NCBI GenBank assembly: GCA_964481205.1 | Contig: CAYZYE010000001.1 | Coordinates: forward strand, 16,552 to 80,551 | DNA length: 64,000 bases | Source: an uncultured Anaerolineae bacterium | Lineage (GTDB): Bacteria; Chloroflexota; Anaerolineae; JAFGEY01 | Reading direction: 5' to 3' | Shown here: positions 3,185-63,921 of the stretch, piece after piece | How positions within the stretch are numbered: position 1 is the stretch's first letter | Layout of the letters: each line of letters opens with the position of its first letter | Program-made: the position numbers and the translations under genes | Notes under the pieces: generated by a model | What the model was told of the DNA's origin: nothing | The model's database searches: none | Seen by the model: only the letters and a program-made list of their open reading frames with translations

Positions 3185-3262
3185 CGTCAATACCCTCAAA
3201 TAAGAACGCCCACAAGAGGCTATGCCGCCAACCCCCCAACTCGTTTGAAACACACCCAAATA

Positions 3263-4996: not shown

Positions 4997-7900
4997 CTAT
5001 AGAGCGCTTCGCGCCAGCCGATTCAATATCTCTAGCATTTGTTTTGCGACAACCGGCTTGGGCACAAAGGCCGCCGCGCCCATACTGATCGCTTTGCCCC
5101 CATCCATTCCCCGAGAACAAACGACAATTGGCGTCATCCGCGTATGCCGCGTCGATTTGAGCGTCTCCAACAACGCCCAGCCCTGCTCACCTCCCAACTG
5201 GGTATCCATCAAAATGACAAAGGGGTTCAGATAGCGCGACCAGCGCACCGCCTCCTGAGGATCGAACAAGGGCACCAGTTGATACCCCACACTGTCCAGG
5301 AAACGACGATACGCGGCCACATCCTCCGAACTGCGTTCGATCACCAGAATCATCTTTTTCGTCTTGTCAATGACCAGATCGGCCAGTTCGGGAATCTCGT
5401 CGGCCATTGGCCCGGCAATAGGCAAATAGAATGTGAATTTAGAGCCAACCCCCTCTTCACTCTCCGCCCAGATTCGACCGCCGTGCATCTCGACCAACGT
5501 GCGGCTGATCGGCATACCCAGACCAGTGCCCTCGGCCGCGCGCGTAGATGACGAGTCAAGCTGGCGGAATTTTTCAAACACCAGACCCATCTTTTCGGCC
5601 GGCATGCCAATCCCCGTATCCGCGATGCTCACGTAAACCAGGTCTTCTTCGCGCCACGTGCTGACCGTGATCGACCCTTCCTCGGTGAACTTGGCGGCGT
5701 TCGACATCAGGTTGCGAATCACCTGGCGAATACGGGTGCTGTCGGCGCGAATCAGCGGCATATCCGGCGCCACATTCAAAATCGGCTCGACCGGCTTTTC
5801 ACCAATCTGCACCGCCAGCGTACCGCGCACCTCCTTTTCGAGCAGCCTGGACATATCCACATCGCTTTCGAGCAACAGTTCCATCTTGCCGGCATCGATC
5901 TTGGATTGATCCAACACATCGTTGATCAAGCGCAACAAGTTTTGACCATTGTTGTAAATGGCCTCCAGGTCTGTTTTCTGCATCTCGTTCAACGGGCCGT
6001 CGATGCCCTTGAGCATCACCCGCGAAAAGCCAATGATCGAATTCAGCGGTGTGCGCAACTCGTGCGACATTGTGGCCAGAAACTCGGCGCGGAACTGGTC
6101 GATCTCGCGCAGCTGTTCGGCAACGCGCTCAATCTCGGCAGCGCGCTGTTGCAAAGACTCGAACAATTGCGCATTTTCGATCGCCGAAGACAGCTGCGAA
6201 GTCACCCCCTCAATGATCTCCAACTCTTCTTCGCTCCACTCGCGCTGCATCCCCAACTCTTGCACACCCAACATCCCAATGACCTGACCACGCCGGTCGA
6301 TGGGAGCGACAAACGCGGTTTCCGCGTCGCCGTCCCCTTCTTTGGCCCAGGCCAAAGGAGATTTTTCCGTGAGCACGCGCTCGGCCTCCGATGGAACAGC
6401 CTCCAGCGGCGGCACCCCCGGCTGCCGGAAAATGAAATCCCGCTCATCCTTGATCGCCAGATAATCTTCCCACGATTCTCGCAACAAATTTTGCTGCAAC
6501 GTAGTGATCTCGGCCAAACGCTCCTGCGCATCCTCGAACAAGCGTGCATTTTCGAGTGCCTGCCCCATTTGCTCGGCAATAGACTGCACGATCGCCACCG
6601 CGTCTTGCGACCATGTTTGCGCCACACCCGGATCGTGGACGCCCAATACCCCCAAAACATGACCGCCATAAGAAATAGGTACGGCGATCCTGTCCGGTTC
6701 CACCACCGGGCGGTCCGTCTCCAACACATTGGCAACCTGAGGAACAAGCCGGTGTCCCAGAGGTTGAATATCCCCGCCGCGCAGTTGATACCCCGCAGAA
6801 CGAAGCCTGGGGGCAAGCCGGTCCCATGACTCGCCCACATACCGCTTGCGCAGCTGCTCCAAATCCTCCAAAGCAAAACGCGCCTCGCTCATCGAGCGAA
6901 TGTTGGCAATACCGCTTGCCGTTTGATCGGCGATTGTGGTCAAAATAGCCACATCCTGATCGTCCAGCGTCACGCGGTCCGGGCTTTGCAAACTCAACAC
7001 ACCAACAAGCTCACCTCGCGCCGACAGCGGCACCGCGGCCTCAAAATACACATCGGCGATGTGATAGCTGGCCTGCGCCGCCTGCCCGGACACCTCCTGG
7101 ACAAAGCGCGATTGCGCATGGACGACGCACCAACCGGCCACCGTTCGATCGTTGACCGGCGCCCGCTCCCCCGATGGTATCTCGCTGCTGCTCGAAGCAG
7201 CAACCGTCATCCATGCGCTATCCTCGTCCACCAGAAACAGCAGGGTATACATGTGAAACCCTTGCCTGACCAGTTGGACAACCTGTTCTGCCAGCTCGGG
7301 AATACGTTCCGCCGATGTCACAACCTGGGAAACCTGGGACGAGACGCGCAACTGAACCGCCCGCTGCACCAACTCGGTGTTCACCTGCTCTAGCCTTTGA
7401 TTGAGCGTATCTTGCTGCTGAAGACTTTTCTGCAACTCGACACGGCTTTGCACCAGCTGCTCGGTTCGTTCTTGAGCGCGCTGGTAACTGCCAAGCGCCC
7501 ACTTGACCGTGTCAAAAAGAGGCCGAAAAGTGATCCAGGCCAAACCAACACCCAGCCCGGAAAAGAGCAGCGCGCCATAAGCCAAAGGCGGCGCGTTGCC
7601 AAGCAAAGCAGGGAACACAACCGTCGCCAGAAACTGGATACCAAACAAAACGACCGTACTCCATGGCGAGAGGAGCAACCCGGAGATCGAAATCAACAAC
7701 GTAAAGGCAAATGGCAGGCTTTGCCAGATCATCGCCTCCCCAGTTTTGTCGCCGAACCGCGGTGGAAACACAAGCGGCACACACAACGCCAGCGCATTGA
7801 CCAGGATAAACGCCCACGCCGCCCGGTCGAACGCATTTCGTTGTTGAAATTGTTGGGTCAAGATCGACGCGGCAACGAGAACAGCAAAGAACAGATACCA

Positions 7901-8041
7901 AATTGTGCCTGACTCTGGCGCGCCGAGCAAAACCATCAAGATAATAAAGGCAAAACCCAACCCTATTTTCCACAAAAGGCTCAACAGAGAATGCCGAAAG
8001 TCGAGCGGCCCCTCTTGTTCAACCCATTGAGATGCACCCAT
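4997..8041 (-). CDS. Hybrid sensor histidine kinase: polytopic membrane N-terminus, coiled coil, three GAF-type domains, HisKA, HATPase_c and C-terminal REC
   Basis: ATG with GGAGG at -6. H-box MSHELRTPLNSIIGFS, N-box NLMSNAAKFTEEG, G1 DTGIGM, G2 GTGLGM, then a REC (ILVIE..ILMDTQL..VVCS..FVPKP). It is the only intact kinase in the window and the last sensor of the train. Confidence 0.9.
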   Translation of the reverse strand: MGASQWVEQEGPLDFRHSLLSLLWKIGLGFAFIILMVLLGAPESGTIWYLFFAVLVAASILTQQFQQRNAFDRAAWAFILVNALALCVPLVFPPRFGDKTGEAMIWQSLPFAFTLLISISGLLLSPWSTVVLFGIQFLATVVFPALLGNAPPLAYGALLFSGLGVGLAWITFRPLFDTVKWALGSYQRAQERTEQLVQSRVELQKSLQQQDTLNQRLEQVNTELVQRAVQLRVSSQVSQVVTSAERIPELAEQVVQLVRQGFHMYTLLFLVDEDSAWMTVAASSSSEIPSGERAPVNDRTVAGWCVVHAQSRFVQEVSGQAAQASYHIADVYFEAAVPLSARGELVGVLSLQSPDRVTLDDQDVAILTTIADQTASGIANIRSMSEARFALEDLEQLRKRYVGESWDRLAPRLRSAGYQLRGGDIQPLGHRLVPQVANVLETDRPVVEPDRIAVPISYGGHVLGVLGVHDPGVAQTWSQDAVAIVQSIAEQMGQALENARLFEDAQERLAEITTLQQNLLRESWEDYLAIKDERDFIFRQPGVPPLEAVPSEAERVLTEKSPLAWAKEGDGDAETAFVAPIDRRGQVIGMLGVQELGMQREWSEEELEIIEGVTSQLSSAIENAQLFESLQQRAAEIERVAEQLREIDQFRAEFLATMSHELRTPLNSIIGFSRVMLKGIDGPLNEMQKTDLEAIYNNGQNLLRLINDVLDQSKIDAGKMELLLESDVDMSRLLEKEVRGTLAVQIGEKPVEPILNVAPDMPLIRADSTRIRQVIRNLMSNAAKFTEEGSITVSTWREEDLVYVSIADTGIGMPAEKMGLVFEKFRQLDSSSTRAAEGTGLGMPISRTLVEMHGGRIWAESEEGVGSKFTFYLPIAGPMADEIPELADLVIDKTKKMILVIERSSEDVAAYRRFLDSVGYQLVPLFDPQEAVRWSRYLNPFVILMDTQLGGEQGWALLETLKSTRHTRMTPIVVCSRGMDGGKAISMGAAAFVPKPVVAKQMLEILNRLARSAL

Positions 8042-8076
8042 TTTGTTCCTCCAACCGTGTTCGCCTCACCCCAAAC

Positions 8077-10278
8077 CTACTCTTGCGATGAAAGCCCCCT
8101 GGTATTCAACTGCACAAAAGCAGCGGGCACATTCAAAACCCGCGCCAGATCGGCGATCGTCGTCTGCATCAACGCATCCAAACTGACGCGAGCCTGCATA
8201 TTGGCGCCAATCTCGCGGATCTGGCGTTCTCTAATCTCGCGCGACTGTGTTTCCTGGTAAAAACGCGCCGCTTCCAAAGCATACGACAACTGTTCGGTCA
8301 CATCTTGCAGCCAGGCCACCTCTTGCGGCGTCCATTCGCCGTCTGCCGCTGGCTTGACCGTATCCAACACGCCAATGATCTCTTCACCAATGCGAATGGG
8401 GATCGCCAACGGCGCCCCTTGCGGATCACGATCTTGGGCCTCGGGGGCCAGGATCGTCTGCCCCTCCTGAATCGCCCGCGCCATCTCGGGGCGCGACACC
8501 GGAGGCAATTTGGTCACACCGCGCGCATCACTGCGAAAAGCCATCCCGCCGCCGCGCAACAACTCTAGCCAGGCCTGACGGCTCATCCCGCTATAGGCAC
8601 GCTCTGCGGAGGCCAACGCCTCTTGAACCTGGGCAAACAAGCGCGCATTATCCAACGCGCTTGCCACCTGATCGGCCATCGTCTGCAACGCAACCAGTGC
8701 GTTTTGGTCAAACGCATCCGGCTGGTCGCTCTGCACGGTGATCGCGCCCACAACATGCCCGTGGGCGCGCATCGGCAGCGCCGCCTCAGATTGCGTGTCC
8801 GGCAGTTCATCGGCGACCAGACGCACCTGGTCCTGGCTCACATCAGAGGCAACGCGAATCTGATCGTTGGCAATGCACCAACCCACCATCCCCTCGCCAA
8901 CCCGAATGCGATGCCCGCGAGCAACCATACGGCGTCCATATTCGCCGCTGCCGGCCCGCAACACCGCCCACTCGCCGCTCTCATCGACTTGAAACAAACC
9001 AACATAATACAAGCCAAACCGATCTTGAATGACCTGGGCCACCTGGCGAATGAGTTGATCGACATCCAAAATGGACGAAAGCGTTCGCCCCACGTCGGCC
9101 GTCGCTTGCAAGTACACCGTCTGCTGCTCCAGAGCGCGGGTCCGTTCGCCGACACGCCGTTCCAAACTGCCCACCAGCTCGCGCAACTGCGCGGTCATAC
9201 TATTGAACGCCCGCGCCAATGCGCCAATCTCGTCTTCCCGCTCGACCGTAGCCACCAGGTCGCGTTCGCCGGCAGCAATTCGACGCGCCACCTGGGCCAA
9301 ATTGACAATGGGCACCGAAATCTGCCGCGTCATGGCAAACGAAGCCCATACCGCACTCGTCGTCATCAGCAACGCCGTAACGCCGGTCGCCGCCAACATC
9401 ATGTACATCGCTTTGAAAGCAACAACTTGGGGAACTTCTACCAACAACACAAGCTGGATTTTCGGCAACCATTGATAAGCGCCAATGACCGGCACCCCCA
9501 CATGATTGGCATACAAGGCCGAACCGCTCGCCCCCTTCAACGCTTCGATCGCGCCGGGTGTACGGGCAATCATTTGCGGCCGATCGATGCCGGTACCGGC
9601 CACAATCACATAATCGGAATCAATGAGGTAATTCTTTGTATTCTCGTCTAAAAAAGTGCGCACGTCCATCATTGCCTGCAAAACGTCTATACTGACCCGG
9701 CCGCAAAAAATCCCCGACGTCTCTTGCTGCTCATTCTGGACAGGCTGCACCACAACAATATCGCCATCGCCCAACAGACGAACCGAGTTGGCCGACAACC
9801 CGCTACGGAAAAACTCGGCGTTCCGGTAAAGCCGTCCCCGATCAATGTCTCCGGTAGAAAAAACGACACGCCCCTCGTCGTCGATCAAAAAAAACTCGGC
9901 AAACGGTTGGCCGGGGCCAAGATACGGCCCCAGTTTGAACGCCAAATCCTCGATAACCCCTTGCGCAGCGCCCGTTTCCAAAGCAGAGTTGAAAATCAAC
10001 TGCGCATATATCGACACTTGTTTCTGGACAAATATCTCGTCCAGGCTACTTTGCAAGCCATCGACCCAGGCGTCAATCTGCATCGCCCTGACATTGCCCG
10101 CTGACTCTAGCGTATTGATCGCCCGGCTGCGCCCACTGCGAACACTGAACACGATGGCAATGATCGAAACAGCAACCATCGGCAGCACGCCAACCAACAC
10201 AAAAGCCACAAACAGACGCACGCGAATCGCACGAAACGGGCGAACCTTGAAACTGATATCCTGACTTGTCTCGGTCAT
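8077..10278 (-). CDS. Cache-HAMP-GAF-GAF sensor protein, no output domain
   Basis: Start moved to ATG at 10276-10278 (MTETSQD), which has GGGAG upstream. TM, roughly 280-aa periplasmic Cache-like domain, TM, HAMP (..ARAFNSMTAQLRELV..), tandem GAF (GLYYVGLFQVDESGEWAVLRAGSGEYG..), C-terminal cap ..LDALMQTTIADLARVL... Confidence 0.85.
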   Translation of the reverse strand: MTETSQDISFKVRPFRAIRVRLFVAFVLVGVLPMVAVSIIAIVFSVRSGRSRAINTLESAGNVRAMQIDAWVDGLQSSLDEIFVQKQVSIYAQLIFNSALETGAAQGVIEDLAFKLGPYLGPGQPFAEFFLIDDEGRVVFSTGDIDRGRLYRNAEFFRSGLSANSVRLLGDGDIVVVQPVQNEQQETSGIFCGRVSIDVLQAMMDVRTFLDENTKNYLIDSDYVIVAGTGIDRPQMIARTPGAIEALKGASGSALYANHVGVPVIGAYQWLPKIQLVLLVEVPQVVAFKAMYMMLAATGVTALLMTTSAVWASFAMTRQISVPIVNLAQVARRIAAGERDLVATVEREDEIGALARAFNSMTAQLRELVGSLERRVGERTRALEQQTVYLQATADVGRTLSSILDVDQLIRQVAQVIQDRFGLYYVGLFQVDESGEWAVLRAGSGEYGRRMVARGHRIRVGEGMVGWCIANDQIRVASDVSQDQVRLVADELPDTQSEAALPMRAHGHVVGAITVQSDQPDAFDQNALVALQTMADQVASALDNARLFAQVQEALASAERAYSGMSRQAWLELLRGGGMAFRSDARGVTKLPPVSRPEMARAIQEGQTILAPEAQDRDPQGAPLAIPIRIGEEIIGVLDTVKPAADGEWTPQEVAWLQDVTEQLSYALEAARFYQETQSREIRERQIREIGANMQARVSLDALMQTTIADLARVLNVPAAFVQLNTRGLSSQE

Positions 10279-10318
10279 ACTCACTCCCAACCGTGCCGGT
10301 ACCGCACCCAATCCAGCA

Positions 10319-12046
10319 TCACTCGGCGGCGTTCTCGGCCTGGATCTCGGCCGAATTTCGGAGTTGCACAACTACCTCCGGCAAGCCAAGCGTCTGGCGC
10401 ACCTGCTCCACCGCCGTCCGGAGCACGGTCTCGATGTCTAGCGTCTGGCGGATACGCGAAGTCACCTTACCCAACATCTGCTGGTGCGCGGCGCGAAGCT
10501 GCGTCTCCTGATACAACCGCGCGCTGTCCAGCGTCCCGCTCAACTGTGCGACCAGCGATTGCATAAACTCGACTTCGTCCTCGGTCCAATCCCCCATTGA
10601 TTCATCCTTGCACAGGCGAACGACCCCTTCCACATTGTCGCGAATGTCGATGGGAATCAACAGCGTTGTCCCGTCGGCCCGAACCAGTTGATTCTGTCGA
10701 TATGCGGCGACCATATCCGGCAGCCACCGGTGGTCAGGCTCGGTTACACCTTGCGCATCACACAAATAGCCAATGCCACCGGGCGTGCCAATGATCTGAC
10801 GCCAGGCATCGCGGCTGATCTCGCCATACGCGACACGCTGCGCCTCCAAAGTCTCCTGGATCTGGTCAAACAGAGCGACATTCTCGATTGCAATAGCCAA
10901 CTGATCGGCCAACACCTGCAAAATAGACACATCGTCCCGCGTAAAAGCGTTGCTTTGCACACTCTGCACATCGAGCACGCCCAAAACACGTTCACCGACC
11001 TCGAGCGGCAAGGCAACTTCCGAGCGTGTCTTTGGCAAGAGTGGATTGGCAAAGTGATGCGCGTCCTTGCCCACATCAAGTGCAACGCGCGACTGGCCCG
11101 TTTTGGCCACATCGCCGACAATGCCCTGCTCACCCACCCTCAAGCGGTGCCCTTGCGAAAGCATCAACTTACCGCCCTCGCTGTTACTCGCCCGCAGCAC
11201 CGCATATTGAACCGGCGTCTCCCGGCCAACCTCATCCAACATAAATATGCCCACGTGGTACACATCCAGATATTGACTGATCAAATCAGCGGCCTGCGCC
11301 AACAGCTGCTCCTGATCTCGAATCATGGCCGCGGCGCGCCCGACCTGGACAACGGCCTCCAATCGCTGCGCGCGGTTCGCCAACGACGCTCGCACGACCT
11401 CAAGCTCACGGTTGACCTGAGTCTGATCGTACTCGTTACGACGCGCCTTGGCCAGCGCCGCGTTCAGGTTGTGCAACGCAGAACGCAACAACAGATCGGC
11501 CAACAACACAAGAATGCCGATAAAGATCAAATCCGAGACGGTCACGGGTGTGCCCGGATACTGGACCAAACCAAACACCTGGATCACATATCCGATCCCC
11601 AGGCAAAGCAAAGTCAAAATCGTAGTCAAACGCATCGCCCGTCTGCCCAACAGCAAACCAGACAACACAACAATGATCAAATACTCGGCTGGACCCTGAT
11701 CGGCATTGACGCCGGCAAAAAACAAAACCCAAACCGTCATCACCAGCCATAACAACGAGACCAGAATACCGCCGGCAGCCGTCACGTGACCGCGTTGGGC
11801 AACCAGGATCAACCCCAAACTGATCAGGCATACCACCAGCCCAATCAAGATCACAAAAACCTCTTGCAAATTTCGCGGAAGACCATTCACAATGAGCAGC
11901 AAAACGACCATAGTCAGAGTTGCCGCAAACAGCGTGAGCAGCACCGTATACAACAAACGAACAGTCTGGCTTTTGTCCTCGTCCTGAAAAACCGGAGGCG
12001 TAACGAACCGCTTGATTCGATTCAATATCCTGGTCAATATCCTCAT
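10319..12046 (-). CDS. Polytopic membrane (about 6 TM) GAF-GAF sensor protein, no output domain
   Basis: ATG start. N-terminal hydrophobic helices, then a GAF (VYHVGIFMLDEVG..AVLRASNSEGG..GHRLRVGEQG..), then a second GAF-like C-terminal cap (..LDIETVLRTAVEQVRQTLGLPEVVVQL). Confidence 0.85.
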   Translation of the reverse strand: MRILTRILNRIKRFVTPPVFQDEDKSQTVRLLYTVLLTLFAATLTMVVLLLIVNGLPRNLQEVFVILIGLVVCLISLGLILVAQRGHVTAAGGILVSLLWLVMTVWVLFFAGVNADQGPAEYLIIVVLSGLLLGRRAMRLTTILTLLCLGIGYVIQVFGLVQYPGTPVTVSDLIFIGILVLLADLLLRSALHNLNAALAKARRNEYDQTQVNRELEVVRASLANRAQRLEAVVQVGRAAAMIRDQEQLLAQAADLISQYLDVYHVGIFMLDEVGRETPVQYAVLRASNSEGGKLMLSQGHRLRVGEQGIVGDVAKTGQSRVALDVGKDAHHFANPLLPKTRSEVALPLEVGERVLGVLDVQSVQSNAFTRDDVSILQVLADQLAIAIENVALFDQIQETLEAQRVAYGEISRDAWRQIIGTPGGIGYLCDAQGVTEPDHRWLPDMVAAYRQNQLVRADGTTLLIPIDIRDNVEGVVRLCKDESMGDWTEDEVEFMQSLVAQLSGTLDSARLYQETQLRAAHQQMLGKVTSRIRQTLDIETVLRTAVEQVRQTLGLPEVVVQLRNSAEIQAENAAE

Positions 12047-12052
12047 CGAATG

Positions 12053-15000: not shown

Positions 15001-15262
15001 CAGCACCGTGACTACCCCATACGATCAACCCATCGAGCGTGTCTACGCTGGCCAGATCGAACACCACATTCGACGCAAACGCCCCTGTCCCCGGCCTGGC
15101 CTGAACGCCGCCGACAAAACAGACCAGATTGACCCCTTGCGCCCGCGCATAGTCCACCGCACCAAGCCACATCAACTGATAATGGGACAACCCACTGATC
15201 AACATCCCAATCGTCAGACGTTTTGTTCTATCCTTTGTCATTCCAGGATTATTCGTGTTCAT
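12053..15262 (-). CDS. Cytoplasmic PBP1 (LacI/sugar-binding-like) - PAS - GAF - GAF sensor protein, no output domain
   Basis: ATG start overlapping the upstream stop (ATGA). The N-terminal roughly 300 aa are a periplasmic-binding-protein type 1 fold (RLTIGMLISGL..VVGFNDV..) with no signal peptide. Then a PAS (LRTLIDNLPDYVYIKD..), tandem GAF, and cap ..LDIHTVLRNSVREMRAALGLKEVEIRMG. Confidence 0.85.
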   Translation of the reverse strand: MNTNNPGMTKDRTKRLTIGMLISGLSHYQLMWLGAVDYARAQGVNLVCFVGGVQARPGTGAFASNVVFDLASVDTLDGLIVWGSHGAGVLENLDEAETREFLDRYRGLPIVNVETPMAGIPCVFTDTRVAMRQMIDHVIETHQRRRIALIRGPDGHFETQERVRAWSDTLEAHGLVVDERLSSPPVGWGDEDGAAAMRLLLDERHLRPGVDFDALVVTEVQYAVGALVVLQERGVAVPGEVSVVGFNDVVSAETVVPAVTTMRKPFYESGRRALQTVLALVRGEPAPDLVDVQAEMVIRRSCGCWPDEISTAGFLGDVEVTRAQVAPALTRVLAGIAAHMSPDLLARSVEQLVSAFWAGLEAPGDVFLSTFESVMRQVSLDRGQVSRWHLVLSALREYLRPLLDSDQLAWAEVMWQQARTLVGHQVQRSEIAFRLERVRQSDQMRALGMRMMLGQSVADVTRIIAQELPGMGIRSGYLALYDDPERPLDGVRLVLAWRDSRRIELSAQEQHYPTRQLLPHDVWPNGRSYQVGVFPLDAQEQPLGFAVFEIGPADGNLYSSVQQEIVNALQGAFLIEQRRQAETELVQERALLRTLIDNLPDYVYIKDRQSRFVLNNAAHIRVLGARSQEELLGKTDFDFFPSEFASQYYEVEQALMARDESMIDYEEEVIDQATGEHQWGSTTKVPLHDAAGRVTGLVGLTRDVTKIKQVEADLEQYAEAMARRAVQLQTASEVARDTTSVRELGDLLNRVVDLVHDRFGFDYVGVFLVDDQGEYAVLAAATGEVGGALLAQGHRRRVGQEGIIGHVAMTGEFRTVFDVAGDDTYVLNPLLPDTRSEVVLPLQVGGQVIGVLDMQSARVAGFDEEDVAALSIVADQLAVAIQNVRLFEQMQQTVRELQASTAQYTREAWQKLAHGAQPLGYRYRRLGVEPAPERSAEAARALELGEPVVGTGTEQPDASGAVAVPVKLRDQVVGVLNLRFQGGAVPAETVSLIEQVANRLALSMESARLLQDTRRRAVRDRLLSQVAARMGESLDIHTVLRNSVREMRAALGLKEVEIRMGSAPVSDEE

Positions 15263-17547
15263 ATATTTTCTCTCGAGTCGGGCGATGCAATTTCAGGCAT
15301 ATCGATATGCACCGACACCTCGGTCACATTGGGCAACTGCCCAAGTTCGCGCACCGCGGTACGCAGCAACGTGTCCAGATCCAACGTGCGTGCAAACTCG
15401 GCCGAAATCTGGCCGACCGCCTGCTCGCGCGCAGCCTGCTGCTGGGTACTCTCGTACAATTGGGCGCTGTCCAACGCCTGCCCCAGGCGATCGATCAACA
15501 CCTCGAACAATTCAAGCTCGGCGGCCGACCAGCCCCCGGCACCCTCGCGCTTGCGGGCGTCGATCACACCGATCACCTGATCGCGGATGCGAATCGGCAC
15601 GGCTGCCGCCCCGCCGTCCGTCTCATCCTTGACCGTCTGATTCCGTCGCACGGCCAACGCCATCTCGGGACGCCACACCCCTTCGGCAGAGACAAAACGA
15701 CCGTTGCCATAACGATAGCCCCGCCCTAATTCGCGCTCCTGAGCGAGTTTGGCCCACACCTCGCGCCCGTACTCGCCAAAGGCCCGCTGCACGGCCTCCA
15801 ACCGATCCCGCGACTCTTGGAAAAGCCAGATATTGCTGATCGCCATCGCCATCTGGTTCGCCAAAGTCTGTAAAATGACAACCTCTTCTCGAGTAAACGC
15901 CTCCCTGCGCCGAGCGTGCAGGTCCAACACGCCGAGCACCTGACCGCGCGCACGCAGTGGCAAAGCCAACTCGGAACGCATATCGACCACATGTGGATGA
16001 CGAACATATGCCGGTTCGAGATCGGCATCGGCCACAACCAACGCATCCTGTCCAGAGGCAACCACCGACACCAGACCGGCGCCGTCCAATGGCAGGCGGT
16101 ACCCCTGCGCCAGCACACGCCGACTGCCACGGCCGGCCGCGGCCTGTAATTCAACCCACTCGCCCGACAAGTCGAGCATAAAGACGGCCGCATAATCGAC
16201 CTCAAACTGTTCACACATCCACCCGGCAACACGCGACAAAAGTTCCTGGGCATCCAAAATCGACGCCATCGCGCTGCCCACCTCGGTCGCAGCCTGCAAC
16301 ATCGCCGCATGCTGCCGCTCAGCCCGGACCTGGCTTTGCAAACTCGTAGAAGTCTGACGCAATGCCTGGCGCGTGCGGTCGAGCACATTTGCCAACGCGC
16401 CAATCTCGTCGGTAGACGAGACCGTGATCGCAGTATCGAGATCGCCCTGCCCCAAATTGTGCGCCAGCCGGCCGAGTTGCCGGATCGGGCGCACCAGCCC
16501 CAGGCTGCTCCACAGCCCCAGGCCGATCACGGCACTGATGCTCAACGCCAAAATCAACGCCGAAACCCACTCGTACTGCAAAAGCGGAGCCAACACCTCG
16601 TCTGCCGAACGAAACGAGACGATCGCCCACCGGTAACGATCCGTGCCCTTGGGCGCCAAAGAGGTAAAAGTGGCAAAATACGGCTCTAGACGCACCACAC
16701 CGTGCTCGTTCTTTTCATGCACCTTGGAAAACAGCATTGAGGCGACATCGGGATACTCTTGCCCAATAGTGATCCCCGTCTCCAGATCACGCCCCCACCG
16801 CTTTTCCGGTGACTGTGAATGGTACAAATAATACCCATCCTCGTCAATCATTACCACCAGCTCAGACAACTGGCTCTTGGCGCCCAGCGCGTCCAAAAAG
16901 TACGAGGCGAACACATTGACGATCACAATGCCGGACGGACGATTGTCGAACCACACCGGCGTCGCATACCGGATCACCGGTTTAAAAGGCCGCTCGATCT
17001 CGCCATGCTCCACGTTCAGGTCAAGCGGAGAAACCCAAACCTCGCCGCGCCGAGTCGCCATCGTCTCGGTAAAATAATACCGCCCCGCTTTGTCTTGCAG
17101 CTGGTCCTGGGGAACGGCAAACACTTGCTTGCCATCCGAATCGATGCGCACCACCTCCATCCCCGTCGCATCGAGATAACGCACCTGATAGTACACCCCC
17201 CGCACCTGCGACAGATTCAAAAATTCGTGCGCCACCGTGCGCAGCGCGTCAGCCTCGCCGGCCGCATCGCCGTCGGCCTGAGCCTGCAACAGCCGCGCCA
17301 ACCCATCCGCCCGGCTCAAAAACAGCACATCCTCGCGCACCCCAGACAAAAAGCGATCCACATCCGAAGCCAACGTATGGACATAATGCTCTTGCTCGCG
17401 CAGCACAAACCCGTAAACCATCTTTTTTGTTGTTTCAATACTATAGAGCATCGCCCCAAACAAGGGAAGCAATGAGACAGCCATGATCCCCAACAGCAAC
17501 TTGTTGCGAATACTAGAGGTAAAGAAGCGACGCACCTTTTGCCACAT
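15259..17547 (-). CDS. Cache-HAMP-GAF-GAF sensor protein, no output domain
   Basis: ATG with GGAGG upstream. TM, Cache-like ectodomain, TM, HAMP (..LANVLDRTRQALRQ..), tandem GAF, cap ..LDLDTLLRTAVRELGQLPNVTEVSVHI. Confidence 0.85.
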   Translation of the reverse strand: MWQKVRRFFTSSIRNKLLLGIMAVSLLPLFGAMLYSIETTKKMVYGFVLREQEHYVHTLASDVDRFLSGVREDVLFLSRADGLARLLQAQADGDAAGEADALRTVAHEFLNLSQVRGVYYQVRYLDATGMEVVRIDSDGKQVFAVPQDQLQDKAGRYYFTETMATRRGEVWVSPLDLNVEHGEIERPFKPVIRYATPVWFDNRPSGIVIVNVFASYFLDALGAKSQLSELVVMIDEDGYYLYHSQSPEKRWGRDLETGITIGQEYPDVASMLFSKVHEKNEHGVVRLEPYFATFTSLAPKGTDRYRWAIVSFRSADEVLAPLLQYEWVSALILALSISAVIGLGLWSSLGLVRPIRQLGRLAHNLGQGDLDTAITVSSTDEIGALANVLDRTRQALRQTSTSLQSQVRAERQHAAMLQAATEVGSAMASILDAQELLSRVAGWMCEQFEVDYAAVFMLDLSGEWVELQAAAGRGSRRVLAQGYRLPLDGAGLVSVVASGQDALVVADADLEPAYVRHPHVVDMRSELALPLRARGQVLGVLDLHARRREAFTREEVVILQTLANQMAMAISNIWLFQESRDRLEAVQRAFGEYGREVWAKLAQERELGRGYRYGNGRFVSAEGVWRPEMALAVRRNQTVKDETDGGAAAVPIRIRDQVIGVIDARKREGAGGWSAAELELFEVLIDRLGQALDSAQLYESTQQQAAREQAVGQISAEFARTLDLDTLLRTAVRELGQLPNVTEVSVHIDMPEIASPDSRENI

Positions 17548-17549
17548 GC

Positions 17550-19310: not shown

Positions 19311-19323
19311 CTTTGTACCCCGC

Positions 19324-19992: not shown

Positions 19993-20076
19993 CAATTTCC
20001 CCCTCTTGAAGAACCAAATCTCTACGGCAACATTCCTCAATCCACCACCCGCCCCAGCAATCTGGGCCGCGCACAA

Positions 20077-22792: not shown

Positions 22793-22819
22793 TGATCTAC
22801 CACCCACCGCCGGCCCAAA

Positions 22820-26812: not shown

Positions 26813-26813
26813 G

Positions 26814-33938: not shown

Positions 33939-33941
33939 TCC

Positions 33942-38070: not shown

Positions 38071-38106
38071 TGCCGTTCCCTTTTTAGACAACCCTGGAAA
38101 AACGAG

Positions 38107-45874: not shown

Positions 45875-45962
45875 ACCTCGCCACCCATCCCTGGCTCTAC
45901 GCCCGGTCACACATCGAGCATACTGACAACCTCACCATACCGCGACAAAAATCCGCTTGATC

Positions 45963-57951: not shown

Positions 57952-60912
57952 TCAGGCGTCGTCGGAGATCATATCGGCGCCCACCCGCACATACACCCGC
58001 GACGTCCCCAGCGCCTTGTTCAACCCTTCCGCCGTCACCCGCAGCAGCGACTCGATGTCGGTTGCCTGCTGCATCTGCGCCGAAATGTCGGCAATAATCC
58101 CCTGCTGGGTCGCATACGCTTGAGTCTCTTGAAACAAACGCGCGTTTTCAACCGCCACCGCCAGACGGTCGGCGATGCCGCGCAGCAAACGCACCTCATC
58201 CTCCGTCATCTTGAGCCGTTCTTGCCGCCGGTAGCCCACCTCCAAAACGCCAATCGCCGCTCCACGCGCCAACAAAGGCACATACGCCCGCACCAAATCC
58301 ACGTGCCCTTCGCGCTCCCACAACTCGCGATCAAAGCGATCATCCCACCCATCGATCACCTCGATCTGTCCTTTGCGCGCAATATCGATCAAAATATCAT
58401 CCTGAACGTCGTCGAGCGCACGCACCATACCCGCCAACCCGGCGGCCAGCCCCACGCCGCGCGACGTTCGCAACTCACGCGCTTGCTCGTCGATCAAATT
58501 GATTGCCATATACGTAAAGCGCAGATCATCGGTCAGCACCCGCACCGCCACATCCAGCACATAATCCAGATCAAACGTCCCTGACACGGCCCGGCTGACC
58601 TGTTCCAAAACCTCCATTTCACGCACGCGCACCTGCATCGCCTCCACCAACCGGGCATTAATGATCGCATTAGACACCTGGTTCGCCATCGACTGGAAAA
58701 CCGAAATGTCTTCGGGCGTAAACGCTGCTTCTTGGGCGCTCTGGATCGTCAACGCGCCAATCACCTCACCGCGCGCGATCAGCGGCAAGGCCATCTCTGA
58801 ACGTGTATCGGGCAGCCAGGGGTTGGCAAAACGAACGGCGGTCTGACCGACATCCAACTGAATGTCTGCCTCGCCGCCGTCCACACAACGACCGATCATC
58901 GAATCGCCGCCGATTTCCAACTTGTGCCCGTTCTCGATCATCTTTTGACCGGCCGCTCCGGTGCCGGAGCGAAGCACCGCCCACCGTCCCGGCTCCCCCG
59001 TCCACGCGCCATCCAGATCGACAAGAAATAACCCGGCATAATACAAGTCAAACCGCTCCCGCGCCAGATCAACCACGCGCTGCACCAACACATCGGGGTC
59101 CAAAACGCTACTCGCCGCAGCCGAAACATCGGCGGAAATACGCAGCCGCTCCGCTTGCCGTTTAGCCCGCTGCACCAACGACACACTGTGCAACGCCGTA
59201 CTCAGTTGAAGTCGCAAAGCGCCATAGACCACCGTCTGGCGCGGTCCAACCTCAAGCACAATCACCCCCTGGCGCGTTTGCTGAAAATAAAGCGGCATTG
59301 TGACCAGGATATGAGGACGATCGGGAGAAAACAAGCCCTGCGGCGCCAACTGCCGTGTCGGAAAGCGCCGCGCCTCATCTGGCAGGATCAGCACTCCCTG
59401 TTCGTTAAAGGCCACCACCAGCTGCACCCACCCGGTCGACATCTCGGGACGTTCGTACAACGATACACAACCGCCCTCGATGCCCAGCTCGGGCACATAC
59501 TGCGTCACCACCGAAGTCAATTCAGCCACGCTAGAACTCAGCATCAACCGCTGGCTGATCCGCCGAAGCGTCCCCGTCAACTGTACCTCTTGCGCCCGCT
59601 GACGAACCTGCGCTCGCCACAGCACATCACCCACCACCACCCGCCCCTGTTCGCACAATGCTTCGCCCCGCGCCCGCATCTCGACATCACCAAGCAACGG
59701 CACAACGCGCGCGTGCAGCGCCGAGATCACGTCTTGCCATACCAGCGTGCCAGGCGTCGCCGTGATCGCATCCAACACCCTGCTCAACGCATTGACAAAC
59801 CGGCGCGACTGCCCCGTTGTGTCGCCCAGGTCGGCTATAAACCCATCCAACAACGCCTCGGCCCACCGCCCATCTGTGTGTTGAGGCACAGCAACAGCCG
59901 ACACCATCGCCGCGAGAATATCCGCCCGTTGCGCGGCGATCGCCTGCTCTCCCGCAAGAACCGACCCCGTCGCCGCGATGCTCTGACCGGCTCGCACCAC
60001 CGACGAAAGCATACACCCGCACGACTGGCGCAAAACCATCTGCGTGGGCAAAACCACCCGCTGTTGCACCGGCCTGCCCGCAATCAGGTCCAACAACATC
60101 TCGGCCGCCCGGCGTCCCTTCTCATAGATCGGCTGTCGCACCGTCGTCAGTGGCAACGCGCCCACCCGCGCGATCTCCATATCGTCAAACCCCACCACCG
60201 CCACATCGTCCGGCGTCTGCACCCCCCGCTCGCGCAGCGCGTCCAAGGCGCCCAAAGCCGTGTTGTCATTGACCGCCACGATCGCCTCGAAAGCCACCCG
60301 GCGACGATCCAACAACTCGTACACGGCCTCGCCCCCAGACTCGCGCAAGAACGTGCTCTCGACAACCAAACGATCGTCCAGGTCAATGCCATACGCGGCC
60401 AAAGCCTCCACATAAGCTCGATAGCGCACCTCGGCCTCTTGCTGCCCCACCATGCCCCGAATACAAGCAATGCGCCGAAAGCCATGCGCCTCAATCAGAT
60501 GCTCAACCACACTGCGCATACCCACATAATCATCGGTCTCGACGCTAAAAGTATCTTGCCAGGGCACACTGATACTGACGATGGGCAACGGACGATAACG
60601 ATCGACCAACCGCTGAAACTGCTCCTCGTCCATCCGGTGCCGAAACATCCCGGCCATGATCATCAAACCGTCGATGTTGCTCTCGCCGATCTCGGAATAA
60701 AGATTGCCGGCCCCACCGTCCGTCCCGCTCAGATCGCTGCTGAAATAGATCAGGTTGACGCCCCGCTCCCGCGCCACGTCTGCAACCCCCCACCACACCT
60801 CGGCGCTATAAACATCATCCAACCCCACACCCAACATACCAATCGTCGGACGACCATCCTGGAGGTATATCGATCGCGAGATTTCTTTTCCCGGCCCGGC
60901 GCCATCATCCAT
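57952..60912 (-). CDS. Cytoplasmic PBP1 (LacI/sugar-binding-like) - GAF x3 sensor protein, no output domain
   Basis: The ORF-track start is GTG at 60942. ATG at 60910-60912 (MDDGAGPGKE) with GAGGAG at -9 is preferred. The N-terminal PBP1 domain is paralogous to the gene at 12053..15262 (RPTIGMLGVGL.., ..VVGFDDM.., RQSCGC). Then three GAF units (FDLYYAGLFLVDLDGAWTGEPGRWAVLRSGTGAAG..) and cap ..IESLLRVTAEGLNKALGTSRVYVRVG. Confidence 0.8.
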   Translation of the reverse strand: MDDGAGPGKEISRSIYLQDGRPTIGMLGVGLDDVYSAEVWWGVADVARERGVNLIYFSSDLSGTDGGAGNLYSEIGESNIDGLMIMAGMFRHRMDEEQFQRLVDRYRPLPIVSISVPWQDTFSVETDDYVGMRSVVEHLIEAHGFRRIACIRGMVGQQEAEVRYRAYVEALAAYGIDLDDRLVVESTFLRESGGEAVYELLDRRRVAFEAIVAVNDNTALGALDALRERGVQTPDDVAVVGFDDMEIARVGALPLTTVRQPIYEKGRRAAEMLLDLIAGRPVQQRVVLPTQMVLRQSCGCMLSSVVRAGQSIAATGSVLAGEQAIAAQRADILAAMVSAVAVPQHTDGRWAEALLDGFIADLGDTTGQSRRFVNALSRVLDAITATPGTLVWQDVISALHARVVPLLGDVEMRARGEALCEQGRVVVGDVLWRAQVRQRAQEVQLTGTLRRISQRLMLSSSVAELTSVVTQYVPELGIEGGCVSLYERPEMSTGWVQLVVAFNEQGVLILPDEARRFPTRQLAPQGLFSPDRPHILVTMPLYFQQTRQGVIVLEVGPRQTVVYGALRLQLSTALHSVSLVQRAKRQAERLRISADVSAAASSVLDPDVLVQRVVDLARERFDLYYAGLFLVDLDGAWTGEPGRWAVLRSGTGAAGQKMIENGHKLEIGGDSMIGRCVDGGEADIQLDVGQTAVRFANPWLPDTRSEMALPLIARGEVIGALTIQSAQEAAFTPEDISVFQSMANQVSNAIINARLVEAMQVRVREMEVLEQVSRAVSGTFDLDYVLDVAVRVLTDDLRFTYMAINLIDEQARELRTSRGVGLAAGLAGMVRALDDVQDDILIDIARKGQIEVIDGWDDRFDRELWEREGHVDLVRAYVPLLARGAAIGVLEVGYRRQERLKMTEDEVRLLRGIADRLAVAVENARLFQETQAYATQQGIIADISAQMQQATDIESLLRVTAEGLNKALGTSRVYVRVGADMISDDA

Positions 60913-61028
60913 CACCGTCATCTCCTCATCCTCACTTTGCACTGCGCACCACTCGATCCCAGCCCGCTACTGCCTTTAACATAACACACCCCACCGGCAA
61001 GTAACATTACAAAACCATTGCACTTGCT

Positions 61029-63353
61029 TCAACATACTCCCGAATACGACGGCAACACCGCCACCCCGCGCCACCCGCGCACGGGATGAAACTCGCTCCA
61101 CATCGTCCCTTGATGTAAAGCTATAACCTCTTTACCCAACAACAGCCCCACATTATCCTCGCCCAAATGCTCGCTCGGCGTATCCACCGCCAATGCACCT
61201 TTCACCTCGACGTCCCGTGCAGACCATCCAATACTCCCCACGCCAACCACCCAAGCCCCCTGTTCGCAGGCAAACACCTCCACGGCAATCGCGCCCACCG
61301 AAACCTGCTCCGCCGCAGCCGTCGCCAACCCCAAAAAAGCCTGCTGCAACAAACCGGCATCCCCACACACCAACGCCTCGGCTTCCGGCTTGCGCTGCCA
61401 CTCAAAAGTCACATCGATGAACCGCTGCTGCGCCATCACCAAGACCTGCTCGATCAACTCGACAATATCGACCGGCTGTAAATCGGGCTGCACCCCATCA
61501 CTCTCCAACTCGGACAGCGTGATCACGTTATCGATCAAACCCAAAAGCTGGTAGCCGCTTTTGTGAATCGCCACCAGATCCGTGCGCTGCAAATCGGTCA
61601 GCGGCCCATCGACGCCCTTGAGCATCAAACCAGAAAAGCCAATGATATTGTTCAAAAAAGTAGCCAACTCGCGCGACCCCGCGCTCAACGAAGCCAGACG
61701 CACATGATCCAACCGGCTCAACCGCTCCACCGCCTCGTGCTCGGCCGCATACACCCGCGCGTTCTCGATAGCCACGCTAAGCTGATCGCTCAAGCTCTCC
61801 AACGCACCAACGTCCTGTTGAACGACGTTTTCACCACAGCGCCCGCGCAACTCCAACACACCGATCGTGCGCGCGCCGATGCGCAACGGGATGACCACTT
61901 GCGAGGGACACCTGCCGTCCGCCCGTTCGACACAGGTCTGCCCATCGCGCGCCACCTGCCCCACCAAACTGTCGCCGCCAACGGCCACACGCCGAGGTCC
62001 GGGGTAAGGAGTGTTCCCCTGACTGGTGTGCAGATCGAGCCACTCGCCAAACTCGTCCTGCAAAAAAACGGCCACGTGACTCGCGTCGTACACATAGGCA
62101 TAACTGTCCAAAATTAAGTGGGTAACTTGGGCCAAAAGTTCGTCCAGATCGAGAATCGAGGTCGCCACACGGCCAATCTCGGCGCTCAACGCCAACTGCA
62201 TCGCCTGATAACGCAACTGGCGATTGGCCTCGGTCAGTTGCAGCGTGCGCTCGACCACCTTTTGCTCAAGCCCTTCATACAACGAGCGCAATTCGGCAGT
62301 CATCACATTGAACGCGCGCCCCAAGATGCCAATCTCGTCCCGGCGGCGCACCTCGACAACTTGACTCAAATCACCGCCGGCGATCTTGACCGCGCTCACC
62401 GCCAAATCGACAATCGGGCTGGTCAATTGACGAGTGATCACCGCGGCCAACAATGTCGTCAACAAAGCAACGGCCAACGTACTGGCGATCAAGATCGTCG
62501 CCAACTCTTCTTGCCGTGTAAACACCGTCTCTTGAGGCTGCTCCACCCAAAAAGCCAGCGGCCAATTCTCCAACCCCCGGTACGCGCCCACCATCGGTCG
62601 CCCCAGCGCATCCTGATAAGTTTGTACGCCCTGCATCGATCCCATATCTACACCGGGCAAATCTATTGCCTGGTTTGTTACATGGCTGCATTGCGCCGAC
62701 AAGCACCACACCACCCGCGCATCTTGATCGAGCAAAAAACCCTGTTTGCCATCCTGAACAAGCAGAGGAACAAGCAACCGCTCCAACGCCTGCAGATCGG
62801 GATACCCCACCAACACTGCATCCGCGCCGTCGAGCGGCGCCGAGATCAAGAGCGATTGCGGCCACTCGGACCACCTCTCGGACAAGTGAGGAAATGCCCC
62901 TGGCCGGGTCAGAGAACAAACTGCCGCCGGCTGGTTGCGAACGATCACGGCAATAAACGCGAACCGGACACCGCCGCCCACGTCCGCTATCCCCGGCGCC
63001 ACCGCCTTGTCCCCCAACCCCGCGAATTTAGAAGCATAAATGTGCGAAAAAGAAGAACAAATATCCGACCACTCATCCCCCTGAACCGCCTGCTGCACCA
63101 CAGACGAATTCGCCAAAAGCAGCAAATTCGAGTGCAACCCATCCAACCAGGCCAGAATTTGCAACGCGCTTGAATCGGCAACCAAATTCAATTGACTGCG
63201 CGCCGTTTGGCGGGCAACCTGCTGCACCTGGCGAATCGCCAAATAGCTCACCACACTAAGCGGCACAATCGCCAATAACATAAAGGCTGTGAGCAAGATG
63301 CGCCCCAGCCCCCCGCGAGTTCCCGCAACCATCCTGGTCACTTGCGTTTTCAC
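61029..63353 (-). CDS. Cache-HAMP-GAF sensor with degenerate (pseudo) histidine-kinase module: H-box His replaced by Arg, HATPase_c degenerate
   Basis: GTG start (GAGG at -9). TM, Cache-like ectodomain, TM, HAMP (..GRAFNVMTAELRSLYEGLE..), one divergent GAF, then a HisKA-like dimerisation region. That region aligns with the true kinase at 4997..8041 but reads SRELATFLNNIIGFSGLMLKGVDGPL where SHELRTPLNSIIGFSRVMLKGIDGPL is expected; the Arg codon is at 61671-61673. The C-terminal roughly 150 aa are HATPase-like but lack the N and G1 boxes. Confidence 0.75.
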   Translation of the reverse strand: MKTQVTRMVAGTRGGLGRILLTAFMLLAIVPLSVVSYLAIRQVQQVARQTARSQLNLVADSSALQILAWLDGLHSNLLLLANSSVVQQAVQGDEWSDICSSFSHIYASKFAGLGDKAVAPGIADVGGGVRFAFIAVIVRNQPAAVCSLTRPGAFPHLSERWSEWPQSLLISAPLDGADAVLVGYPDLQALERLLVPLLVQDGKQGFLLDQDARVVWCLSAQCSHVTNQAIDLPGVDMGSMQGVQTYQDALGRPMVGAYRGLENWPLAFWVEQPQETVFTRQEELATILIASTLAVALLTTLLAAVITRQLTSPIVDLAVSAVKIAGGDLSQVVEVRRRDEIGILGRAFNVMTAELRSLYEGLEQKVVERTLQLTEANRQLRYQAMQLALSAEIGRVATSILDLDELLAQVTHLILDSYAYVYDASHVAVFLQDEFGEWLDLHTSQGNTPYPGPRRVAVGGDSLVGQVARDGQTCVERADGRCPSQVVIPLRIGARTIGVLELRGRCGENVVQQDVGALESLSDQLSVAIENARVYAAEHEAVERLSRLDHVRLASLSAGSRELATFLNNIIGFSGLMLKGVDGPLTDLQRTDLVAIHKSGYQLLGLIDNVITLSELESDGVQPDLQPVDIVELIEQVLVMAQQRFIDVTFEWQRKPEAEALVCGDAGLLQQAFLGLATAAAEQVSVGAIAVEVFACEQGAWVVGVGSIGWSARDVEVKGALAVDTPSEHLGEDNVGLLLGKEVIALHQGTMWSEFHPVRGWRGVAVLPSYSGVC

Positions 63354-63844: not shown

Positions 63845-63921
63845 AACACAACTCCCTATTACAGAACGACAAAAGCCCCAGTAAGGCAACTCGGGAGAAA
63901 TAATTGTCCCAGATTAGCAAA

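Follow-up and report, generated by a model that had tools for sequence, protein, structure and literature searches.

A locus of kinase-less GAF receptors in an uncultured Anaerolineae bacterium that looks like a many-sensors-to-one-kinase signalling system

The control of one kinase by many different receptors has precedents in the arrays of methyl-accepting chemotaxis proteins (MCPs) and in the stressosome. Here we describe a locus in an uncultured Anaerolineae bacterium (Chloroflexota; GenBank assembly GCA_964481205.1, contig CAYZYE010000001.1, positions 16,552 to 80,551; this stretch of 64,000 nucleotides is called the window below) that encodes 19 GAF-domain receptors without any output domain, together with one active histidine kinase and a ParA-like ATPase. 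The receptors join variable inputs to a constant body, in which we distinguish a canonical first GAF domain (GAF1), a small GAF-like domain that we call the cap, and a 53-residue C-terminal element that we call the tail. All parts are known domain types. Because the gene set recurs in many related genomes, the locus looks like an undescribed many-sensors-to-one-kinase signalling system.

Chemoreceptor arrays likewise place varied inputs (dCache, HAMP and PAS domains, in soluble and transmembrane receptors) on one conserved membrane-distal module, and they are positioned by ParA/MinD ATPases (ParC/PpfA), so that the presence of one kinase and one ParA-like ATPase in the locus is a further likeness (PMC11407121). 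The locus differs from them in its constant module, which is GAF-cap-tail, in its kinase, which is of the HisKA type, and in its likely output, a pyridoxal phosphate (PLP) enzyme rather than the flagellar motor. None of the 29 window proteins scanned against Pfam contains MCPsignal (PF00015; E<=0.01), which sets the receptors apart from the MCPs, and Pfam scans of the window found no CheW, CheA, CheR or CheB. The stressosome, composed of RsbR paralogs, RsbS and RsbT, also combines variable N-terminal with constant C-terminal domains, and its sensors co-assemble and control one kinase. However, its constant domain is STAS, its kinase RsbT is a serine kinase and its sensors are few and soluble, whereas Pfam finds no STAS/SpoIIAA match in the window, which places the receptors outside the RsbR family.

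At the level of single proteins, the order sensor, transmembrane (TM) segment, HAMP, signalling helix (S-helix, ERT) and GAF is that of NarX and NarQ, whose GAF-like domain is regarded as a pure transmitter and not as a ligand sensor (PMC8199190). In place of the DHp and CA domains of NarX and NarQ, however, the receptors have cap and tail, with neither a phospho-acceptor histidine nor an ATPase domain. The GAF1-helix-cap body finds its best structural matches in the tandem GAFs of PDE2/5/6 and CyaB2 and in the phytochrome GAF-PHY spine, and the tail resembles the helix and strand at the N-terminus of GAFs from phytochromes and cyanobacteriochromes as well as the start of PHY. Unlike these modules, the receptors lack the NKFDE motif and any catalytic domain, and their chain ends after beta-1 of the next unit. 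Finally, a kinase paralog that has lost its histidine (61029-63353) lies by a single-domain receiver (REC) in the same locus as an active kinase, as in the DivL-DivK-CckA and RetS-GacS systems, from which the locus differs in having no sequence orthology to them and in encoding 19 further partners without any DHp. Full-text literature searches gave no description of the receptor family or of the locus, in agreement with the first-pass annotation of this sequence, made by a model from the letters alone, which knew of nothing similar among GAF proteins.

Domain content and layout of the gene train

The open reading frame (ORF) listing shows an unbroken, co-directional train of minus-strand genes that extends at least from 2243 to 63889, and all plus-strand ORFs of at least 150 residues within these limits lie inside minus-strand genes. 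A Pfam scan of the 29 window proteins found GAF in the products of 21 genes of the train, of which 19 have no output domain, one is a real hybrid kinase and one a dead kinase. HisKA, HATPase_c, GGDEF, EAL, HD-GYP, MCPsignal and DNA-binding families gave no match in the 19 receptors (Pfam, E<=0.01), and an NCBIfam scan of three receptors and of the 323-residue protein 53557-54528 yielded no specific family. HisKA with a phospho-acceptor histidine together with HATPase_c, the combination that marks a histidine kinase, is absent from the 19 tail-bearing proteins and present only in 4997-8041. These results confirm what the first-pass annotation had read from the sequence, namely a single-strand train of 19 GAF sensors free of MCP, GGDEF/EAL/HD-GYP and DNA-binding domains with one intact kinase (4997-8041) and one dead one (61029-63353), as judged from domain scans and motif alignment; the cryptic output domains that it had allowed for did not appear in hidden Markov model (HMM) scans of the 19 receptors, all of which were scanned against Pfam and three also against NCBIfam.

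All 21 genes have a match to a GAF family (PF01590, PF13185 or PF13492), 19 of them with at least one model at the Pfam gathering score; in 45963-47363 only PF01590 passes (34.5 against 22.4 bits), PF13185 falling just under its cutoff, and the matches span part of the profile. The receptor inputs are as varied as had been proposed and comprise dCache or dCache_3 with HAMP, MASE11, multi-TM anchors, PAS arrays and LacI-type periplasmic binding protein (PBP) domains of the Peripla_BP class. By a crude hydropathy scan, 13 of the 19 receptors are membrane-anchored and six are soluble. The genes are listed below from the 5' end of the system to its 3' end; (-) denotes the minus strand.

63419..63889 (-): single-domain REC at the 5' end of the system; Response_reg E=3.6e-18; likely start 63844
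61029..63353 (-): pseudo-histidine kinase, TM-sensor-HAMP-GAF-degenerate DHp/CA; HAMP E=1.1e-13; HisKA 23.7 bits (cutoff 26.9); no HATPase_c
57952..60942 (-): soluble sensor, PBP(LacI-type)-GAF1-GAF-tail; Peripla_BP_3 E=1.2e-34; tail 57979-58134, E=2.4e-19
56891..57910 (-): NMT1/THI5-like substrate-binding protein, interspersed, non-GAF; Pfam NMT1 E=1.1e-19
54757..56598 (-): membrane sensor, TM-HAMP-GAF1-cap-tail; tail 54799-54957
53557..54528 (-): 323-residue protein without a family match (Pfam and NCBIfam), interspersed
51881..53413 (-): squalene-hopene-cyclase-like gene (Pfam), interspersed
50211..51884 (-): membrane sensor, multi-TM-GAF1-cap-tail, the member modelled; tail 50262-50417
47329..50214 (-): membrane sensor, multi-TM-dCache_3-HAMP-GAF1-cap-tail; tail 47383-47535
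45963..47363 (-): minimal member, multi-TM-cap-tail, without GAF1; cap HMM E=4.5e-18; tail 46014-46172, E=3.9e-21; partial GAF matches
44120..45910 (-): membrane sensor, MASE11-GAF1-cap-tail; MASE11 E=1.3e-23; tail 44162-44320, E=4.1e-24
41204..43939 (-): membrane sensor, multi-TM-dCache-HAMP-GAF1-cap-tail; tail 41237-41392
38107..41229 (-): membrane sensor, double dCache-HAMP-GAF1-cap-tail; tail 38158-38316
36304..38091 (-): membrane sensor, multi-TM-GAF1-cap-tail; tail 36370-36528
33942..36311 (-): soluble sensor, two PAS-GAF1-tail, without cap; tail 34038-34196
31176..33938 (-): soluble sensor, cap-three GAF-tail; four GAF stretches; cap E=1.3e-28; tail 31224-31376
26814..31175 (-): soluble sensor, PAS array-GAF1-PAS-cap-GAF-tail; tail 26895-27044
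22820..26854 (-): soluble sensor, PAS/GAF array with five GAF stretches, tail last; tail 22856-23011
22013..22807 (-): ParA/MinD-family ATPase inside the array; AAA_31 E=1.1e-45; deviant Walker A KGGVAKTT
20077..22041 (-): membrane sensor, MASE11-GAF1-cap-tail; tail 20122-20280
19324..20076 (-): DUF6989 membrane protein, interspersed; Pfam E=1.6e-35
17550..19409 (-): membrane sensor, multi-TM-GAF1-cap-tail; tail 17601-17756
15259..17547 (-): membrane sensor, dCache-HAMP-GAF1-cap-tail; tail 15298-15456; identical copy on ENA contig L001
12053..15262 (-): soluble sensor, PBP-PAS-GAF1-cap-tail; tail 12077-12235; best-matching proteins in L010 and L012
10319..12046 (-): membrane sensor, multi-TM-GAF1-cap-tail; tail 10358-10513
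8077..10371 (-): membrane sensor, dCache-HAMP-GAF1-cap-tail; tail 8101-8259; likely start 10278
4997..8041 (-): hybrid histidine kinase, six TM-GAF-cap-cap-HisKA-HATPase_c-REC (Pfam and cap HMM)
3321..4988 (-): threonine-synthase-like (ThrC-like) PLP enzyme with C-terminal REC; PALP E=1.4e-59; Response_reg E=1.1e-18; probable GTG start at 4988, overlapping the kinase stop
2243..3259 (-): EamA-family (DMT) transporter, end of the conserved block; EamA E=3e-26

Labels L001 to L023, here and below, denote the ENA or metagenome contigs and loci that were compared with the window. From 43939 down to 2243, every junction is an overlap or a gap of at most 61 nucleotides, and the tight junctions quoted in the first-pass annotation are real. 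Intergenic gaps of 180, 143, 228 and 292 nucleotides were found at 43939/44120, 53413/53557, 54528/54757 and 56598/56891, respectively, and these four gaps make a single 58-kb transcript unlikely; several operons are plausible. A promoter scan of 43000-62000 was uninformative (11 promoter-like sites against 7.7 expected, one of them in the 56598/56891 gap), and a scan of the same region found no convincing minus-strand terminator in the gaps. The GC content of the window is 52-61%. GC skew of the plus strand is strongly negative across 1-64000 (-0.12 to -0.33 per 2 kb), G exceeding C on the coding minus strand.

The constant body and its C-terminal tail

The last 95 residues of the 19 receptors can be aligned from the end of the GAF alpha-5 helix to an ..IRLG motif, and the tail is present at the C-terminal end of all 19, aligning without gaps in 16 and with one single-residue gap in three. 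Its consensus is [ET]Q.RA.REQ.i..i...mR...D.D.vL.TAv.Ei...LG...v.iRL, and it is followed by 7-31 variable residues that are often acidic. An HMM of its 53 columns matched every receptor (E 1e-16 to 1e-24) and gave no match in the kinase 4997-8041 or the pseudokinase 61029-63353. The order GAF1-cap-tail is canonical in 13 receptors, extra GAF or PAS insertions occurring in 57952-60942, 31176-33938, 22820-26854 and 26814-31175. Since 33942-36311 has the tail without the cap, the tail, and not the cap, is the invariant element. The proposal that all 21 genes share one two-part module therefore goes too far: the full canonical body is confined to these 13, and the kinase and pseudokinase have no tail. 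Among the 13, mean pairwise identity is 45% in GAF1, 34% in the tail, 28% in the cap core and 10% at the extreme C-terminal end. All 120 listed database matches of receptor 50211-51884, the top one being the window protein itself, carry the tail at 1-124 residues from the C-terminus (median, 12.5), indicating that the cut-off ending is a conserved feature of the family.

Four agreeing lines of evidence bear on what the tail is. First, hhalign aligns it with the helix that leads into GAF1 and with the first helix and first strand of that domain (E=2.3e-4). Second, the tail HMM gives weak internal matches exactly at GAF starts inside 22820-26854 and 31176-33938. Third, the tail profile matches the GAF of SyB-Cph1 in the PDB (8w26_A) at residues 11-53 (E=4.2e-13) and again at the start of PHY (201-240), with further matches (6oap, 2lb5, 6oza/6ozb, 3oov and 6bhn) to the N-terminal ~45 residues of phytochrome- or cyanobacteriochrome-type GAFs. 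Fourth, in a search of 1.84 billion representative proteins (50%-identity clusters), which returned 11,181 matches at E<=1e-3, 3,510 of them at E<=1e-10, the highest scores belong to giant poly-GAF proteins (1,500-2,900 residues) that contain 6-11 internal copies, one opening each GAF repeat. On this evidence we read the tail as the start of a GAF-type repeat unit (linker or signalling helix, alpha-1 and beta-1) that is cut at that point, with no novel fold. The first-pass annotation had treated the receptor ending as one peculiar cap module; the alignment of the receptor ends resolves it into two elements, and the hhalign, PDB and poly-GAF matches show that the tail is not peculiar to these proteins. 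In P0261, P0263 and P0326, units of tail plus cap are repeated and the tail still comes last. Among the giant poly-GAF proteins, P0241-P0260 and similar proteins have nearly identical repeat junctions, and several, for example P0241, are histidine kinases.

Other candidate identities for the tail were tried and rejected. The tail is a fragment whose chain stops 7-31 residues on, and thus is not a full phytochrome-class GAF with bilin pocket and chromophore-binding cysteine. A degenerate DHp was rejected because profile searches put the tail at GAF starts and the kinase similarity visible by eye ends with the cap helix. Completion of the cap by circular permutation was rejected because the modelled cap is already five-stranded, the tail strand is unstructured and 33942-36311 has no cap to complete.

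In an AlphaFold2 model of residues 188-557 of 50211-51884 (monomer; 95-sequence alignment; mean predicted local distance difference test score [pLDDT], 84.9), a complete GAF is followed by a helix of ~50 residues, a small five-stranded GAF-like cap and a helix of 46 residues (model 280-325); after a turn, the chain forms a 16-residue terminal helix (model residues 329-344; pLDDT about 75) and an unstructured end. The best Foldseek matches of this model are the tandem GAFs of PDE5A and CyaB2 and phytochrome GAF-PHY. Solved GAF domains are matched with target-normalised TM-scores of up to 0.86, and the PtsP GAF and free Met-R-sulfoxide reductase are also among the structural neighbours. A cyclic-nucleotide-binding tandem GAF was rejected because a regular-expression scan found no occurrence of the NKFDE motif, NK-x(5-24)-F-x(3)-DE, in any window protein. 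A search for solved homologues that could point to a GAF1 ligand found no close one, only weak local matches. In the 95-sequence alignment, the polar loop NPLLPDTRSE of GAF1 is almost invariant.

The kinase and the recurrence of the gene set

The gene 4997-8041 encodes an intact hybrid kinase with six TM segments, GAF, HisKA, HATPase_c and REC (Pfam). A cap HMM built from the sensors found two full caps in this kinase, at residues 384-502 and 499-627 (E about 9e-26 each), with HisKA following from residue 651, and the same HMM found full caps in the kinases of L002, L008, L009 and L010, which are 38-54% identical to it and occupy the same position. The kinases adjoining the L002 (4085-12379) and L009 (3049-9885) arrays are giant poly-GAF proteins of 2,765 and about 2,230 residues, respectively. 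Small kinases of ~530 residues, encoded in L011, L016, L021 and L023 and 3'-truncated in L014, have the layout PAS-reduced cap-HisKA-HATPase, the PAS match being sub-threshold in L011 and absent in L016, and Pfam finds no membrane-sensor domain in any of these five. Alignment of 61029-63353 with the real kinase shows that the phospho-acceptor histidine is replaced by arginine (SRELATFL against SHELRTPL) and that the N-box asparagine and G1 aspartate are lost, marking this gene as a pseudokinase paralog of the real kinase. It lies directly downstream of the single-domain REC 63419-63889, which recalls DivK-DivL. In L004 and L014, too, the array has a REC at its 5' end.

The window paralogs are 23-58% identical to one another. 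For 50211-51884 there is one relative at 76% identity and there are more than 100 at 50-58% in other Anaerolineae metagenomes, with more than 3,000 matches at E<=1e-10 among 8,000 candidates scored (90%-identity clusters); those of its relatives that have names come from Anaerolineae metagenome-assembled genomes (MAGs) and are named only 'GAF domain-containing protein' or a close variant. In L012, which has a ParA-like gene 81% identical to that of the window, the best window matches run 31176, 26814, 22820, ParA, 20077, 17550, 41204 and 12053, that is, in window order and at 39-58% identity, the match to 41204 (39%) filling the slot of 15259. Taken together, the divergence of the paralogs, their closer relatives elsewhere and the L012 gene order argue that the receptors are old, individually conserved paralogs rather than the result of recent amplification. 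The extreme tandem paralog expansion that the first-pass annotation had offered as one explanation is thereby refuted if it is understood as recent. All array ORFs are intact, and part of the array was recovered independently on ENA contig L001. In an exact-protein look-up only 15259-17547 was on record; three window proteins were unmatched (two queries had a GTG start given as V, and the third was P0001).

Arrays of tail-bearing proteins are found in L003 (six consecutive genes, followed by a ParA-like one), L006 (ten or more) and L007 (eight) and also in L002, L004, L008, L009 and L010. L004 comes from a Chloroflexia MAG, and its sensors are only ~33% identical to the query, yet its order mirrors that of the window: two RECs, four GAF sensors (tail clear in three and weak in one), a ParA-like gene, GAF-HisKA/HATPase-REC, PALP-REC (56% identity) and EamA (43%). 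In this locus the ParA-like (11081-11849) and kinase (11815-14237) genes each appear split into two overlapping ORFs, which could reflect either frameshift sequencing errors or real pseudogenisation. Among relatives of PALP-REC, all three long contigs examined show tail sensors, then a (poly-GAF) hybrid kinase 38-54% identical to 4997-8041, then PALP-REC. EamA adjoins it, except in L009, where EamA is separated from it by one gene and lies on the opposite strand. The block of kinase, ThrC-like-REC and EamA thus follows tail sensors in the window, L004, L008, L009 and L010, and L002 shows the kinase only.

The gene 22013-22807 belongs to the ParA/MinD family by its deviant Walker A motif (QKGGVAKTT) and its AAA_31 match, and it matches NCBIfam ParA_partition (NF041546) with E=9.5e-26, below the equivalog cutoff. 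A metagenome scan seeded with this gene yielded 14 loci, 13 of them at 43-81% identity. A tail sensor lies directly upstream of the ParA-like gene in all eight loci with upstream sequence, and a kinase lies directly downstream in six of 13 (L011, L014, L016, L019, L021 and L023), with PALP-REC and/or EamA next where the contig continues; in L012 the downstream gene is another tail sensor, as in the window. Overall, ParA-like relatives adjoin tail sensors and/or a kinase in L003, L004 and 12 of the 14 metagenome loci; L017 (50%) does not extend far enough to reveal neighbours, and no system gene lies near the ParA-like gene of L022 (34%). Gene order across these loci points to a recurring Chloroflexota (Anaerolineae-type) arrangement of REC, a variable number of kinase-less receptors, ParA-like ATPase, histidine kinase, ThrC-like-REC and EamA, of which the window appears to be an enlarged copy. 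The first-pass annotation had captured the sensors and kinases of this locus but had overlooked what the tail is, as well as the ParA-like ATPase and the block of ThrC-REC and EamA.

The PLP enzyme 3321-4988 has a Zn-ribbon N-terminus and the SFKDR lysine motif, and it scores below the cutoffs of the NCBIfam threonine synthase models (NF006050, 266.8 bits against 303; TIGR00260, 145 against 167). ThrC-like-REC adjoins the kinase in every locus examined, and EamA relatives of 39-80% identity occupy the same position in L004, L008, L009, L010, L016 and L023. The pairing of ThrC-REC with EamA suggests a phosphorylation-controlled output of an amino-acid-type metabolite. A full-text literature search turned up nothing relevant to fusions of threonine synthase with a receiver.

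Five interspersed genes of the window are unrelated to the receptors: the DUF6989, ParA-like and squalene-hopene-cyclase-like genes, the gene without a family match and the NMT1 binding protein gene. The pair of cyclase-like and 323-residue protein genes also occurs inside the L007 array (17072-21430; 58% and 66% identity), where the two are separated by ~1.9 kb that includes NUDIX and SIS genes. Relatives of the DUF6989 (19324-20076) and NMT1-like (56891-57910) genes were absent from the first loci compared with the window, the identical contig L001 aside. In L006 (21279-21713), a 120-residue ORF and a SpoIIAA-like (STAS-type) gene take the place of a ParA-like gene or kinase after the long array, which may hint at partner-switching components near some arrays.

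How the receptors may act

Variable inputs, a constant module, the absence of an output, a cap-sharing kinase that in many loci lacks a membrane sensor, a ParA-like ATPase and neighbouring RECs are best fitted by kinase-less receptors acting on one kinase. We propose that the receptors control this kinase by contact, possibly as a positioned assembly, with ThrC-like-REC and EamA as output, and put the probability of this reading at roughly 0.45. Each of the 19 receptors would couple a different input to a constant cytoplasmic transmitter consisting of S-helix, GAF1, usually the cap and always the tail and, having no catalytic or DNA-binding output, would act through this module by protein-protein contact on the kinase of the locus. 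The contact partner would be the kinase that bears the same cap directly upstream of its DHp. That kinase may phosphorylate the receivers of the locus, namely its own REC, the single-domain REC and the ThrC-like PLP enzyme, whose product would leave the cell through the EamA transporter. By analogy with the role of ParC/PpfA in chemoreceptor arrays, the ParA-like ATPase may position or partition the receptor-kinase assembly. The idea that the sensors form a hetero-oligomeric array feeding into a single kinase had already been put forward as one possibility in the first-pass annotation; the recurring gene linkage and the two caps before the kinase DHp give it support that is real but indirect.

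Several observations weigh against contact control of one kinase. The window kinase is membrane-bound with a GAF of its own and may sense by itself. The L006 array ends at a 120-residue ORF and the SpoIIAA-like gene without a visible kinase, and none appears in the 21 kb of array in L007. The last tail strand is unstructured in the AlphaFold2 monomer, and the stronger conservation of GAF1 than of the tail (45% against 34%) would also fit a common small-molecule ligand. As caps are common to receptors and kinase, their co-localisation could partly mirror common descent. Finally, ThrC-REC is so highly conserved (its best 120 matches are 64-100% identical) that it might be a threonine synthase with a housekeeping role and no tie to the kinase beyond proximity.

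The alternative that survives best, which we consider somewhat unlikely, is that the receptors work independently: GAF1, with or without cap and tail, would itself be the effector and bind a common small molecule (a nucleotide messenger or metabolite) or a partner encoded elsewhere, and clustering would reflect shared ancestry and co-regulation. Such an effector would suit the ranking of GAF1 as the most conserved region, its almost invariant loop and the long kinase-free array stretches of L006 and L007, and stand-alone GAF effectors and enzymes do exist, the PtsP GAF and free Met-R-sulfoxide reductase being among the structural neighbours. Yet NKFDE is absent, there is no close solved homologue from which a ligand could be inferred, and 45963-47363 and 31176-33938 have no GAF1 but keep the tail. 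Moreover, independent action does not sit well with a position beside the ParA-like gene and the kinase that is kept in 8/8 and 6/13 independent loci, respectively, or with a cap shared specifically with the kinase.

RetS acting on GacS and DivL acting on CckA are precedents for a second alternative, in which the receptors are kinase-less decoys that heterodimerise with poly-GAF or cap-containing kinases through a spine of coiled-coil, cap and tail and so titrate or switch the kinase without any large assembly. This model draws on the homology of tail and cap to the repeat junctions of poly-GAF kinases, on the presence of a pseudokinase paralog of the real kinase in the same locus and on the giant poly-GAF kinases that adjoin the arrays in L002, L008 and L009. 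However, the caps and GAFs of receptors and kinase are only 24-30% identical, which is low for specific heterodimers among 19 partners, and a 1:1 model leaves the conserved ParA-like ATPase unexplained, so that we judge it distinctly unlikely. A third alternative denies the locus any system-level function and takes it for the product of recent tandem amplification, for a collection of decaying kinase genes or for an assembly artefact. Its adjacent, co-directional genes and one dead kinase speak for this alternative, which is nevertheless barely credible for paralogs only 23-58% identical, with intact ORFs, closer relatives elsewhere (39-76% identity, order kept in L012), the tail in all 120 listed homologues and part of the array found independently on L001.

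Control of one kinase by contact thus remains our preferred reading. Its most elaborate form, a ParA-positioned, mixed supramolecular receptor assembly in which the membrane-distal helix-hairpin tail would dock on and control one HisKA kinase, with a phosphorylation-controlled PLP enzyme and export of an amino-acid-like product, we regard as unlikely; a distinct supramolecular receptor system is nevertheless a real possibility. If true, it would be a third many-receptors-to-one-kinase architecture, non-homologous to chemoreceptor arrays or stressosomes, and a possible third route to many-to-one integration, built from GAF domains where the two known systems use other modules. The locus also raises a structural question, namely what function a receptor tip may derive from a GAF unit that breaks off after beta-1. 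The receptor family is large and unnamed and, having no recognised output, would be misclassified or left unexplained in censuses of signal transduction, and the locus offers partners that can be tested, from bacteria that are known chiefly through metagenomes.

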